Assembly (NCBI GenBank): GCA_013166775.1
Contig: JABLTJ010000042.1
Location: 1-22,368 of the forward strand
DNA length: 22,368 nucleotides
Direction of reading: 5' to 3'
Origin: Promethearchaeati archaeon
Lineage (GTDB): Archaea; Asgardarchaeota; Heimdallarchaeia; Heimdallarchaeales; Heimdallarchaeaceae
Shown here: positions 2,940 to 9,033 of the stretch, piece after piece
How positions within the stretch are numbered: position 1 is the first letter of the stretch
Layout of the letters: every line of letters starts with the position of its first letter
Made by a program: the position numbers and the translations under genes
Notes under the pieces: model-generated
Databases searched by the model: none
What the model saw: only the letters and a program-made list of their open reading frames with translations
What the model was told of the DNA's origin: nothing

Positions 2940-2980
2940 CCTTTAAAAAGTAAATTACATATTATTCTAATAGACATGGC
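2940..2980 (+). promoter_or_regulatory. TATA promoter/leader, copy 1 of the shared motif
   Basis: CCTTTAAAAAGTAAATTA-cat-ATTATT-ctaat-AGACATGGC, with the TATA box about 30 nt upstream of ATG 2976. Nearly identical to 8990-9033. Confidence 0.75.
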
Positions 2981-3461
2981 TTACACAACCGAAAGACAAA
3001 TTGTTGACTTACTAGCGGACAAATGGAAGGGAGAAAATAAACTAGTGGTTAAGGAGTTGGTTATTCCTGTAATAGATCAAGTTTATTATGATAACTATTT
3101 AGAAGGTAGAGAACAGGTAAGGATTGATTTAGCAGCTTATGATACTGTAACAAATCAAGTAATCTTTGTTGAGGCAGAAAACGGATTATATTTACAGCAT
3201 CCTCAAATTTATCTTCCATTTTGTAATGTTCTCTATATTTTATGTCCAGAAGATCAATCTTCTTTCAGAGAAGAGCAATTTAAATGGAGTAAGGAGAAAG
3301 GAATTGGGATAATAGAAGTAAAAAAAACTGGTTTGATTAGTTACTCCCTAGAACCTTTGACCAGGCAGATTTTCCCCAAAGTTCAAGCTTATATCAAATC
3401 AAGATTATTTAGAAGAATCAAGAAGGAGAGTGGTAAAGATTCTAAGATTATTGTCAAGTAA
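2976..3461 (+). CDS. PD-(D/E)xK restriction-endonuclease-fold protein (MmcB-like small nuclease)
   Basis: KE...RIDLAAY...VIFVEAE...YLPFCNVLYILCP...GIGIIEV matches the fold layout, with ExE in place of ExK. Confidence 0.65.
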   Translation: MAYTTERQIVDLLADKWKGENKLVVKELVIPVIDQVYYDNYLEGREQVRIDLAAYDTVTNQVIFVEAENGLYLQHPQIYLPFCNVLYILCPEDQSSFREEQFKWSKEKGIGIIEVKKTGLISYSLEPLTRQIFPKVQAYIKSRLFRRIKKESGKDSKIIVK

Positions 3462-6400
3462 CAAAATGCAGAAATTCGTTGGTTCGAATAAATCAATTTA
3501 TACTATAAAAAGAAATGAAGATTTTACTGTTTATGCAGCATTTATTATAAAACCTTTCAAACAAATTGAAGAGGATATTAAGCAGAAAAAAAATAAGTTT
3601 TATTCAAAAAAAGAGGAAAAAGAGAAACCCAATCCACTTCTCTCAGTTCTAAACGAAGTAAAAATGTTAAACATCTCATTGCATCGAATGTTTATTCCAG
3701 GAAATGTTAAGAAAAAAGAAAACGTGGAAAACACAAAGAATCAGAAGAACAAATCATCATCACTTCTGAATGAGTTATTCGAAGAGGATAATCAAGAGAT
3801 TGACGTTTCGCTTTCATTTTTCACTCTTAAAGTATGGAAAAGTTATGACCTATCTTCAACTTTTGAATCAGAAAGCAGTTTAGTTGATAATTTTGTTTCA
3901 CACTTGAGGAATGAATTAAAACAGAAACTAGAAAGTGTAGGGAAAGTTGGTAGAGTACTGGGAGACACATTAGAGGAACTTGTAAGATTCAGTACCTTAA
4001 ATCATAGTAACTTTCTAAGCAAAGGAAATAGAGTATTTAGTGAGCTAACAAAAGATTTCGTATTTATAGAAAAGAGTGAAGAATTTCAACATTCTTTCCA
4101 ACCTGGTCCTTCAGTTGATAAGAGACCTGATAGTATCTTTTCTTTTCCGTCAGGTATTGAAACGAATAGTAGTCTACTTGTAGGTTTGACAGAATCTGAT
4201 CTTCCAGTTGGATTACCTAAGGATCCCTCATTCCCAATACTTATAGCAGGAGACAATAAAACAAGAGAAATAATCACAAGTAAGTTGTTAGAACAAAATG
4301 GAAAATTTATCATTCTGGATCCAAGGACAAACCTGGAATTTGAGCACAGAATTAAAACAGATTTTACTGCTTTGAATTTGGGGGAGAATTTCACTTTCAA
4401 CGTTTTAACCCCAGTAACGAACAAGAACTATATTTCTGAACAAATCTCCAACCAATATCTAGGTAATTTTATTGAAATCATTCGTTCAATTACCGACGTT
4501 CGAAGTGATGCAGCAGCTTTACTGCGTGATTTAATTGATTTCTATATCAACGAATATCAAGAGGAACAAGAAGATGTTTTATTCCCTAGACATGATGCTC
4601 CTGTATCATTAGATGATCTTTATTCAATGCTTACAATCGAACCTGGAGGTCTAGTAATTACAGATTATCAACTCTCGACTGTCCGAGCATTAATCAATGA
4701 TATCAGAGATCCGAGCATAAGTGAAAATACGAGAATCAATGATATTCGAGGTATTGAAGAATTATTCTCCAATAACATGATTATAAATTTCAGCTCACAA
4801 GGTTACAAAGTACAAAAACTATTTATCTATTCTTTTTTGCTTCAATTAACAGTCATTGATCAGATAATGAACGTTGATGAAGACATCTTGATTTATATCG
4901 ATGATGCAGAATTATTCTTCTCAAGAGATATAGATAAAACCATTCTCTCACATATACTCAAAAAACTGGAGAATAGTCCCTTCAAGATAATTTTCTCTAC
5001 TCCTTATCCCTCTCATCTTTCTTCCCAAATCTTTGATCTGACTCATAACAGAATCATTGGCAACCTCAAATCAGCTAATTGTCTAAAGCTTATATCAAGT
5101 TCTCATGGATTGGATAAAGGACAATTTGAATTCATTAGGCGTTTACCAAAAAACAATCTACTTCTTGTGAGAGAGGATCTTATGGAAAAACCACTTTTAC
5201 TTAGATTCTTCCCAGAGGATTCAGAAAGATATGAAACTCAACCAATCAAGCAGAAACAGGAATTTCATAGAAATTCTAAAACTCTGAAAACCGATGATGA
5301 AATTCTAACTGTAAATATAGAGGATTTTTCAAGTTTGCATCCTGTAATGCTTGAGATTCTAGATAAACTCTCAACTAAAGTAAATAGAGGAATTAACTCC
5401 GAATCATTAAGTAATCTTTTCATTAATTGGGAAAAAAACAGGGTCAAAGAAGCAATTTCAGTATTGGAAACGTTTGGATATATTTTCTTTGAAACTGTTG
5501 ATAAAAAGGGTAACAAAGGGGAATACTGGACAAAAATTACTCCTAGAGGAAAAAGATTCCTTGAAAAGCTCAAGTTTACCAAGGTAATTGAGGTTAAGAA
5601 CAAGGAAGTAAAAGATGAATCTGTTCTTGAAAATACTGAACAAAATAAGATTCTTGAAGCTGAAATTGTTTCTGATTTTGTTGAATCTCCAAGCATAGAA
5701 ATCACATCGGATGATTCTTCTTTGGTTGTAAAAAAACTTCAAAAGCAAAGAAGGAAAGTTAGAGAAACAAGAGATTCAGAGAAGAAACATAGACAAAAAT
5801 TGGAAATTCTTAACTCAACATTATTGCATGTAAAATCATTACTTAATAATGAATTTGAAGAAGAAGTTGATAGGATGGATAACTTCCTTACTGCACTTTC
5901 AGGATATCTAGAGGAAGATGATTCTGTTCAAGAATTACCTAAAGAGATTCTAACGTCAATTTTCCAAAAAGCTCTGTCTTTAATTGATGCAATACAAATT
6001 AAATCAACTTTTGGTGAATCCTCTACTAGTCCCACAGATGACGAATTTATTGAGAAAGTTATTGAGAAGGAATTGAAATCTGATAAGTGGCAGGATTTTG
6101 ATAGAGAAGTCTTTTTAACAGAAATTCCAGAACTATCCGCAATTAGTAAAAATCAAAAAAAGATTACGAAAATGGTTTCATCAGAGATACCAAAAGATAT
6201 CCTCCAAGGATTAGAACTTGGTTTAGACCTACCAAAAGAGGAATTCGTTAAACTGGTCAGAGAAGCAATCGCTTCCTTGTTACAAATTAAAACAATGTTT
6301 TACCCAAATATGGATTCAGAGAAGTATTTAGATGAGGTTAGTTCATTCTTTGAAGAAGCTGGATATCCGAGACCATTTGAGAGATCTAAACAGCTATTAT

Positions 6401-6582
6401 GGGAATACACTTCAAAGAAAAAGGAGAAGAAACACCCATCATCTTACGGAGATAGGAGAGGGATAATCGAAAGTATTCAAGAGGAGAGTGGATCCTTTGA
6501 ATTTGATTTGGAAGGGAAGGGGAAAGATTCTCTTGTTAGTCAACTGATACAAAGCATTCGGAAAAAGATCAAAAATGAATGA
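3430..6582 (+). CDS. Degenerate HerA/VirB4-like ATPase with a winged-helix domain and a helical C-terminus
   Basis: ILIAGDNKTRE (decayed Walker A), FIILDP, FNVL, Walker B IYIDDAE, and IIFSTPYPSHLSSQIFDLTHNRIIGNL (TQxP motif region). Winged helix at VKEAISVLETFGYI...TKITPRGKRFL. The start may be ATG 3466. Confidence 0.7.
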   Translation: MVKILRLLSSNKMQKFVGSNKSIYTIKRNEDFTVYAAFIIKPFKQIEEDIKQKKNKFYSKKEEKEKPNPLLSVLNEVKMLNISLHRMFIPGNVKKKENVENTKNQKNKSSSLLNELFEEDNQEIDVSLSFFTLKVWKSYDLSSTFESESSLVDNFVSHLRNELKQKLESVGKVGRVLGDTLEELVRFSTLNHSNFLSKGNRVFSELTKDFVFIEKSEEFQHSFQPGPSVDKRPDSIFSFPSGIETNSSLLVGLTESDLPVGLPKDPSFPILIAGDNKTREIITSKLLEQNGKFIILDPRTNLEFEHRIKTDFTALNLGENFTFNVLTPVTNKNYISEQISNQYLGNFIEIIRSITDVRSDAAALLRDLIDFYINEYQEEQEDVLFPRHDAPVSLDDLYSMLTIEPGGLVITDYQLSTVRALINDIRDPSISENTRINDIRGIEELFSNNMIINFSSQGYKVQKLFIYSFLLQLTVIDQIMNVDEDILIYIDDAELFFSRDIDKTILSHILKKLENSPFKIIFSTPYPSHLSSQIFDLTHNRIIGNLKSANCLKLISSSHGLDKGQFEFIRRLPKNNLLLVREDLMEKPLLLRFFPEDSERYETQPIKQKQEFHRNSKTLKTDDEILTVNIEDFSSLHPVMLEILDKLSTKVNRGINSESLSNLFINWEKNRVKEAISVLETFGYIFFETVDKKGNKGEYWTKITPRGKRFLEKLKFTKVIEVKNKEVKDESVLENTEQNKILEAEIVSDFVESPSIEITSDDSSLVVKKLQKQRRKVRETRDSEKKHRQKLEILNSTLLHVKSLLNNEFEEEVDRMDNFLTALSGYLEEDDSVQELPKEILTSIFQKALSLIDAIQIKSTFGESSTSPTDDEFIEKVIEKELKSDKWQDFDREVFLTEIPELSAISKNQKKITKMVSSEIPKDILQGLELGLDLPKEEFVKLVREAIASLLQIKTMFYPNMDSEKYLDEVSSFFEEAGYPRPFERSKQLLWEYTSKKKEKKHPSSYGDRRGIIESIQEESGSFEFDLEGKGKDSLVSQLIQSIRKKIKNE

Positions 6583-8761: not shown

Positions 8762-8835
8762 AAACTCGAAAACTAGTATGAGGGTAGTTTAATAGATTAG
8801 AAGCAATTTTTGGTAAAAAATAAGAGAAAGAAATG

Positions 8836-8988
8836 CTATTTACTTTTTTTTCTTTTAATTCGTATTGTCGAAACTATTAGAGCTGCTGATGAAACTAATG
8901 ATAGAGTCAGCAACTGTTTAAATTCATTAATTATTGGTAGAAAGGTTGCATTGCTATAGAATCAGAATAATTTTGTTAACTCATTACC
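8836..8988 (-). pseudogene. Remnant C-terminus of a membrane-anchored surface protein
   Basis: The minus strand reads GNELTKLF*FYSNATFLPIINEFKQLLTLSLVSSAALIVSTIRIKRKKSK*: an xEF motif, a hydrophobic helix and a basic tail, with an internal TGA at 8962-8964 and no credible gene body upstream. Confidence 0.5.
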
Positions 8989-8989
8989 G

Positions 8990-9033
8990 CCTTTATAAAG
9001 TAAATTAGTGATTATTTTATTGAAAGACATGGC
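8990..9033 (+). promoter_or_regulatory. radA TATA promoter/leader, copy 2 of the shared motif
   Basis: CCTTTATAAAGTAAATTA-gtg-ATTATT-ttattgaa-AGACATGGC, with TTTATAAA about 30 nt upstream of ATG 9029. Confidence 0.75.

Follow-up and report, generated by a model that had tools for sequence, protein, structure and literature searches.

The window analysed here, a stretch of 22,368 nucleotides (nt) that is contig C37 (JABLTJ010000042.1) of a Heimdallarchaeaceae genome, carries two promoters of similar sequence, P3 (2932..2981) and P4 (8984..9033), both on the plus strand. P3 stands ahead of a unit that encodes a protein of 161 amino acids (aa), a protein of about 1040 aa and a Hel308-like helicase, and P4 stands ahead of a divergent RadA paralogue. 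Both belong to a gene cluster of about 17 kb, which is formed by four consecutive units, each headed by a promoter of the same class (P1 to P4). From sequence comparison we consider it probable (about 0.6) that P3 and P4 are promoters of one lineage-restricted class, which would be read by a common factor, and that the units they serve are co-expressed. What the two sites share is a selected promoter signal and not a discrete operator; it belongs to a whole core-promoter class with about 20 promoters per genome. This class, which is defined by sequence, marks a small set of probably co-expressed genes and ties recombination-type genes to membrane and surface proteins. The genome studied, G000, has 3.85 Mb in 115 contigs and 33% G+C, and is 89% complete. 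In this group of uncultured archaea, promoters and the control of genes are very poorly known.

Two matching stretches of the window

Positions 2940-2957, CCTTTAAAAAGTAAATTA, and 8990-9007, CCTTTATAAAGTAAATTA, share 17 of their 18 bases. Each 18-mer is followed by three differing nt and then by ATTATT, at 2961-2966 and 9011-9016, and AGACATGGC spans the start codon at 2972-2980 (ATG at 2976) and at 9025-9033 (ATG at 9029). These four features had been reported by an earlier note on this DNA, and direct reading confirms all of them. The spacer between ATTATT and AGAC is unequal, with 5 nt at the first site and 8 nt at the second, and radA begins with the ATG at 9029 rather than with the in-frame GTG at 9008 that the list of open reading frames (ORFs) gives. 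Aligned without gaps, 2937-2969 and 8987-9019 have 82% identity over 33 nt and form the best long repeat of the window.

The full pattern of the earlier note, with up to three mismatches allowed, is found in the window at these two sites only, with 0 expected in 100 shuffles. The sequence-only covariance model R1 gives 43 bits to P4 and 34 bits to P3, and its runner-up in the window, at 22322-22356 on the minus strand, has just 10.9 bits; the window contains no further strong copy. In the whole 3.85 Mb genome the exact 18-mer, with W at position 7, is present at these two places alone, and near matches comprise one site with one mismatch (C98:28188) and five sites with two, where about 1.6 are expected from Markov-simulated genomes. 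The similarity of the two sites is not due to chance.

Parts of promoters P3 and P4

Both sites are core promoters, with a TATA box, a GTAAATTA box, an ATTAT box, a TTGA initiator and an ATG located 32-39 nt past the TATA start, and each of the two 18-mers consists of the TATA box together with bases that flank it. In a genome-wide search with a profile built without G000 and its closest relative, G006, P3 has an E-value of 0.008 and P4 of 5.6e-6. The TATA box of P3, TTTAAAAA (2942..2949), lies 34 nt before the ATG, and its columns are nearly invariant in alignment A1, which holds 48 promoters. It is directly followed by the box GTAAATTAC (2950..2958), for which the class consensus is sAAWTT and in which the AA pair is nearly invariant among the aligned promoters. 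By its position alone, the sAAWTT box may act as a downstream TFB-recognition element, whose place it occupies. The ATTATT box of P3 (2961..2966; class consensus GATWAT), whose AT pair is invariant or nearly so, lies at about -12 to -6 relative to the predicted transcription start and may have a role in DNA melting. AGAC-ATG-GC (2972..2980) would hold the 5' end of the mRNA, as predicted from the TATA spacing, together with the start codon of the 161-aa gene, and the AC that precedes the ATG is at least 90% conserved.

P4 is built in the same order, as found by direct reading and in A1. Its TATA box TTTATAAA (8992..8999) lies 37 nt before the ATG and is followed by the downstream box GTAAATTAG (9000..9008), by the ATTATT box (9011..9016) and by TTGAAAGAC-ATG-GC (9020..9033), which is predicted to comprise the likely initiator, a leader of 6-7 nt and the start codon. 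All these parts are on the plus strand, and the TTGA of P4 is at +28..+31 from the TATA start. The distance from TATA box to ATG varies from 32 to 39 nt among the 48 promoters, and TTGA holds 27-31 nt from the TATA start in short and long forms alike. Such constant spacing is as expected for an initiator with leaders of about 2-10 nt, the start sites being predicted ones. Conservation had been said to extend downstream of the TATA box, and in A1 it runs from there to the start codon.

Conservation in orthologous promoters

The architecture of P3 is retained in the orthologous promoters of 19 congeners and P4 is conserved in 16. These 35 orthologous promoters of both genes have TTTCTC..TTTWTAWAT-sAAWTT-nnn-ATWAT..TTGAAAGAC-ATGG in common, and the consensus of A1 is TTTTCnCnnCTTTATATATnAATTTnnnTATTAT..TTGnnAGACATGGCT. 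The parts stand in one order at both genes: a TTTC-rich pyrimidine tract, TTTWTAWA, sAAWTT, three to four free bases, (G)ATWAT and TTGAAAGAC-ATGG. The motif is therefore conserved in orthologous promoters, at both genes across the genus and at the RadA paralogue also in sister genera. Identity between P3 and P4 is 0.54-0.58 and that between orthologous promoters is 0.58-0.62; because the cross-type identity is as high as that of orthologues, the conserved thing is the shared motif itself.

Symmetry was also looked for. Inspection of the aligned promoters shows no consistent inverted repeats between the TTTC tract and GAAAGAC. The box GTAAATTAC forms a palindrome of 9 bp, GTAAWTTAC, at P3 of G000 and G006 only, and other species have TGAAATTAA, TCAATTTCT and similar forms in its place. 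No dyad typical of a repressor site is conserved across the orthologous promoters.

Comparison with ordinary promoters

The baseline for ordinary promoters is given by tRNA promoters and k-mer counts. The tRNA promoters of G000 have the form (C)GAAAG-TTTAAAAA, and purines make up 69% of the 7 nt before the TATA box at 21 tRNA promoters versus 24% in the class. Promoters of the class thus lack the purine-rich TFB-recognition element (BRE), and a TTTC-rich pyrimidine tract stands there instead; the divergent neighbour of P1 has CGAAAG. There is no tRNA promoter among the class matches. Of 3118 crude gene starts in G000 only 2 have GACATGG, upstream regions are depleted in TTTCTCC, and other candidate leaderless promoters of this genome have upstream flanks that are A-rich, not pyrimidine-rich. 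De novo motif discovery by expectation maximisation on the 3118 crude upstream regions gave a T-rich drift of low information and no usable generic promoter. The pattern TWTWWAWA-N24-31-GACATGG has 49 matches in 25 genomes, versus 62 for its reversed control, and served only to pick further orthologous promoters.

Members and taxonomic range of the class

The profile built without G000 and G006 finds 12 sites in G000 at E<0.03 and none in a third-order Markov genome. These sites are the promoter of a RING-finger membrane gene, P4, P1, P3, P2 and seven further sites. R1 finds 24 sites in G000 at E up to 0.1. Each of the 25 genomes of the genus has 5-34 sites, with a median of 19; in five genomes of four sister genera R1 finds 25, 17, 4, 12 and 6; and in five genomes of other families of the order, with the same settings, it finds 2, 0, 0, 0 and 1. 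Its matches in the family add up to roughly 500. The cluster genes are present in sister genera, and in four of the five sister-genus genomes the RadA paralogue is immediately preceded by an R1 match. Five of the six R1 matches in the closed genome G045 are within 260-321 kb, around the cluster.

At least 15 R1 matches lie directly upstream of paralogues of the surface-protein family of P1, some of which have more than 2000 aa. The RING-finger gene (C35:64028-66154) encodes a 708-aa membrane protein with a C-terminal RING-H2 finger and is itself a paralogue of the P1 protein; its outer domain of about 550 aa is common to the P1 protein and to many paralogues per genome. Most genes of this outer-domain family bear the class promoter. 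Other members are an aldehyde-dehydrogenase/LuxC-like gene, a superfamily 2 helicase, a 121-aa winged-helix protein and an element of 195 nt without ORF, which has two copies.

The two copies of the 195-nt element (C1:173467-173660 and C38:21219-21415) are 91% identical, and each has a strong class promoter followed by about 150 nt that are predicted to be transcribed and contain no ORF. A search of ORF-less class sites in Rfam found no match, and the element is possibly an undescribed small RNA. The 121-aa protein is found in G001, G013 and other genomes, with G000 homologues at C53:14720 and C6:23564. It is predicted to form a winged helix (predicted local distance difference test score, pLDDT, 72), with weak Foldseek matches to the winged helices of Rpa2, cullin and MCM. 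Its gene, which is unlinked to the cluster, bears a class promoter with GACATGG in at least eight congeners, and the protein is a candidate regulator or partner protein. In the window itself, GTTTAAATATCAATTGTGCCATAATATCCTTGGAAAGTG (22322-22356, minus strand; R1 E 0.013 in the window at 10.9 bits) is a weak class-like promoter directly before the GTG of the minus-strand ORF 21939-22316.

Three candidates were rejected. The Y-family polymerase gene dinB, a marker of damage regulons, has a match of E 0.006 in G000 and is not a consistent member, as its promoter is conserved in another form in most congeners: across the genus, dinB promoters have a long T-tract, then TTTTTATATT(A/G)AAAA, and only two sub-lineages end in TTGACATGGC. 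An Orc1/Cdc6 gene (C52:35311-36522) has a very conserved promoter with TATAAATAGTAAATT and ACTTTC upstream, but the gene is highly conserved and of housekeeping type, and it gives no R1 match. That promoter, TCACTTTCAGAGATGTCTGTCTAGTAAGTATAAATAGTAAATTCCCTTG, is almost invariant in G000 and 22 congeners, and in several genomes a class promoter lies about 600 nt away, in opposite orientation. In another family of the order, homologues of RadA (39% identity) lie among other genes and have no class promoter.

Candidate factors

G000 encodes three full-length TFBs, which have 40-45% mutual identity, and a 95-aa fragment. This fragment (C44:58812-59099) is a single TFB cyclin repeat, located directly downstream of the conserved TFB gene. 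Two of the TFBs have orthologues across the order, with 63-80% and 50-54% identity. The third (C1:147846-148793) has orthologues with 88-99% identity in the genus and 66-79% in sister genera, and outside the family only paralogue-level matches of at most 45%. It is present in all five genera of the family, where the class has 4-34 sites per genome, with 0-2 elsewhere. Because its family-restricted distribution matches that of the class, the third TFB is the leading candidate for the reader of the class, a tentative assignment that we would call doubtful rather than probable. If the factor is this lineage-specific TFB, the class would be a clean natural case of regulation directed by a basal factor outside haloarchaea and Sulfolobales.

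Among the cluster proteins no member of a standard regulator family is found, and the 1040-aa protein has a weak winged-helix signal. The genome also encodes three to four Orc1/Cdc6 paralogues.

Proposed explanation and its alternatives

In the explanation that we prefer, P3 would serve the unit formed by the 161-aa gene, the 1040-aa gene and the helicase gene, and P4 would serve the RadA paralogue and, probably, the adhesin-like gene that follows. A promoter of the class would consist of a pyrimidine TTTC(T)C tract that replaces the BRE, a TTTAWAWA TATA box, the adjoining sAAWTT, GATWAT near -10 and a TTGA initiator 28-31 nt past the TATA start, followed by AC-ATG-GC. The mRNAs would have leaders of about 2-10 nt with no Shine-Dalgarno sequence. 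One trans-acting factor would read the class-specific bases on either side of the TATA box, and through this common factor the four units of the cluster would be expressed as one programme. Co-regulation of the four units and of the other class members is likely from the promoter comparison. An observation about one gene neighbourhood becomes in this way a set of predictions: shared expression, dependence on the bases that flank the TATA box and preference by one factor.

The earlier note had taken the match as a shared operator and as the strongest direct evidence that the two units function together. A shared signal at the level of the promoter stands, but it is not private to the two units, as it is found at four units of the cluster and at about 20 promoters per genome, and it has no conserved dyad. 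The common promoter class makes co-regulation of the two units likely; the link extends, however, well past them. The DNA-damage or competence-like theme that the note had proposed is not apparent in the members, which include genes without a link to DNA metabolism (surface proteins, the aldehyde-dehydrogenase/LuxC-like gene, the RNA-like element) and to which dinB does not consistently belong.

The region from the TATA box to the start codon might still be the operator of a dedicated regulator in a DNA-damage or DNA-uptake regulon, like that of the Orc1-2/TFB3 response of Sulfolobales, an explanation that we regard as unlikely. Conservation spans the region where archaeal repressors act, recombination-type genes lie beside membrane and surface proteins in the cluster, and the upstream tract, TAGTTTCGAG or AATAGTTTCG in several orthologues, resembles the Sulfolobus sequence AATAGTTTCRG; the several Orc1/Cdc6 paralogues and the small winged-helix gene that bears the class promoter in at least eight congeners are further points in its favour. 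Yet a dyad shared across species is missing, the GTAAWTTAC palindrome is confined to this lineage and the TTTC tract is weakest at the two reported sites. ANTTTC is a hexamer of low information, no regulator gene is fixed beside the cluster, dinB promoters have a separate architecture in most congeners, and the aldehyde-dehydrogenase/LuxC-like gene, the RING-finger membrane protein and the RNA-like element are members too. That the class is a constitutive, efficient near-leaderless promoter of the lineage, which works without a class-specific factor or coordinated control, would agree with the position of every element, since each stands where a basal function is expected (TATA box, -10 melting region, initiator), with the functionally mixed members and with the alike recognition helices of the three TFBs. 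It is nevertheless an improbable account of a promoter that is found at only about 0.6-0.8% of genes (19-24 sites for about 3100 crude genes) and at no tRNA gene, whose matches are concentrated around the cluster (five of six in G045) and which differs from the other candidate leaderless promoters of G000, with their A-rich upstream flanks.

A resemblance without present function could also have come about by descent only, if a promoter had been copied within the cluster or homogenised by gene conversion. P3 and P4 have an identity of 0.580 within a genome versus 0.544 across genomes (permutation p 0.015, with related genomes included), some pairs of the same genome are strikingly similar, such as P2/P4 in G016 and P3/P4 in G021, and many class members head paralogous genes. 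The signal of concerted evolution is weak, however, the genes of P2, P3 and P4 are mutually non-homologous, and the motif persists, between saturated flanks, across genomes with 55-75% protein identity and in sister genera. We consider descent only a very remote explanation, and gene conversion between P3 and P4 is at most a minor contributor.

Several observations weigh against a lineage-restricted class with a common factor. In this genome, both sites preserve the TTTC tract poorly (TTTATCCTCC and CATTACCGCC). Single sub-elements are no commoner than reversed-pattern controls, and neither TTTCTY with TATA nor TATA with sAAWTT is more frequent than its reversed control; only the combined profile is significant. 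R1 was trained on this genus, so the low counts in distant genomes reflect in part divergence, and many members head paralogues of one surface-protein family, whose promoters may be similar partly by descent. As for the reading factor, the class and the third TFB map to one clade, which amounts to one event that would be matched just as well by any other factor specific to the family, and in its BRE-recognition helix (TEVTLRNRY) the third TFB is almost the same as the conserved TFB, with no sign of altered specificity.

Likeness to known systems

The hsp5 promoter of Halobacterium is read by the heat-induced TFBb/TFB2 (PMC2396416). As in that system, the regulatory information would here lie in the core promoter (the TATA box and its flanks), the genome has several TFB paralogues and a subset of genes shares the promoter. 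The present class, which is defined by sequence, differs from the hsp5 class in the bases that set it apart, among them pyrimidines where the BRE would stand and a further conserved box that follows the TATA box.

In Sulfolobus, Orc1-2 binds the damage element AATAGTTTCRG (ANTTTC), which precedes the ATG by 23-55 nt (PMC6061795). In the damage response of Sulfolobales, Orc1-2 on ANTTTC, together with TFB3, drives the ups pili genes and the ced DNA-import genes (PMC6061795, PMC6101594). The likeness lies in a T-rich ..AGTTTC.. that stands near the TATA box and 23-55 nt ahead of the ATG, the genes being mostly leaderless, in targets that mix cell-surface genes with DNA-handling ATPases, and in a TFB paralogue, which is a candidate here. 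ANTTTC is present in most orthologous promoters (as AGTTTC, ACTTTC or ATTTTC) and is degenerate at the sites of the window (AATTTA; CATTAC). Unlike the truncated TFB3 of Sulfolobales, the third TFB is full length, no Ups or Ced homologues were identified here, and dinB is not a consistent member. A further reading, which we hold to be quite unlikely, is that the third TFB reads this BRE-less class and that the programme of about 20 promoters joins surface proteins and the recombination cluster as an independent counterpart of the Sulfolobus TFB3/Ups/Ced system. The cluster would then contribute the RadB-like ATPase, the 161-aa and 1040-aa proteins, the Hel308-like helicase, the RadA paralogue and the giant adhesin, beside a fast-evolving surface family.

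Eukaryotic promoters can have a downstream TFIIB recognition element, BREd, a box with the consensus RTDKKKK that adjoins the TATA box on its downstream side, at about -23 to -17 from the start site. The sAAWTT box is similar in lying directly past the TATA box, where contact with TFB may be supposed from its position, but it does not fit this consensus. The LexA SOS box and the ComX competence promoters also tie non-homologous genes together by a short shared promoter sequence, and ComX is an alternative initiation factor that reads a special core promoter, which is parallel to the candidate role of the TFB here. Unlike LexA and ComX, the present class belongs to another transcription machinery, and it has no palindromic repressor site.

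Genes of the cluster

The order of the cluster is conserved in relatives: an opposite-strand 409-aa gene is followed by P1 with a gene for a 612-aa surface protein and then by the units of P2 (a membrane protein of about 465 aa, a 218-aa protein and a RadB-like ATPase), P3 (the 161-aa and 1040-aa proteins and the helicase) and P4 (the RadA paralogue). The orthologues of the RadA paralogue and of the 161-aa protein are usually on one contig in congeners, with the order preserved, and P1 to P4 all bear the architecture in 10-11 genomes. In G005 and G009 a Shine-Dalgarno site is found in place of P3, so that the 161-aa gene is fused with the unit before it.

The first gene of unit P2 is split at the contig boundary. 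Its 3' part is at 405..1295 of the window (plus strand) and its 5' part, with P2 and P1, is at the end of contig C101; in a tblastn search with the orthologue of G006, 405-1295 corresponds to residues 168-464 (77%) and the end of C101 to residues 1-124 (81%). The window frame of this gene has a stop at 57-59 and the first 400 nt of the window fail to align to the orthologue, which is due either to a variable middle region or to an assembly problem. The last gene of the unit (1967..2923, plus strand) encodes a RadB/KaiC-like ATPase, which matches NCBIfam radB with E 1.6e-13, below the curated cut-off, and has weak matches to Pfam AAA_25 and KaiC.

Unit P3 begins with the gene of the 161-aa protein (2976..3461, plus strand), which belongs to no known family: nothing was found in Pfam, NCBIfam or PADLOC, and the Atlas gave only a weak MmcB-like hint. 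Its orthologues are present in 20 of 24 congeners with 58-86% identity. The 1040-aa protein (3466..6582, plus strand) gives only weak signals, one P-loop-like and one for an RPA_C-type winged helix (Pfam RPA_C, E 7.8e-4; PADLOC mad8, E 4.5e-5), has no match among the sequences of solved structures, and has orthologues in sister genera with 39-54% identity. The earlier note had placed HerA in this unit, and Pfam recognises no HerA domain in the 1040-aa protein. Searches of the Atlas and of solved-structure sequences were uninformative for the 161-aa, 612-aa and 1040-aa proteins. The third gene (6575..8761, plus strand) encodes a Hel308/Ski2-like helicase, with Pfam DEAD and Helicase_C domains and an NCBIfam Hel308 match of E 3e-50, below the equivalog cut-off.

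The divergent RadA/Rad51 paralogue (9029..10219, plus strand) matches Pfam Rad51 with 190 bits. The genome has six Rad51-family matches in all, and four of the remaining five score higher than this RadA paralogue. Orthologues of the paralogue have 74-95% identity in 16 of 24 congeners and 58-72% in sister genera. The next gene (10231..16587, plus strand), which begins 11 nt past radA, encodes a 2118-aa adhesin-like protein with Ig-like repeats (Pfam Big_1 and Big_3_5); no R1 match lies between the two genes, and the adhesin-like gene is probably transcribed from P4.

The spacer between the helicase gene and P4 varies among the relatives, with two extra minus-strand genes in G006 (one of 262 aa with a zinc ribbon and one of 335 aa) and one in G016, and in G012 (contig C80) the helicase and RadA units are 11 kb apart. 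At P3 of G001, G016, G020 and G023, GACATGG is kept with its ATG out of frame with the 161-aa ORF (ATG GTA TGA). The real ATG of the 161-aa gene overlaps the TGA stop in these four promoters, which thus creates an upstream ORF of two codons. The out-of-frame GACATGG suggests that the element is kept at the level of DNA or RNA, not as a codon. Elsewhere in G000, ARAGORN finds a tRNA-Pyl gene at C35:47450, which suggests the use of pyrrolysine.

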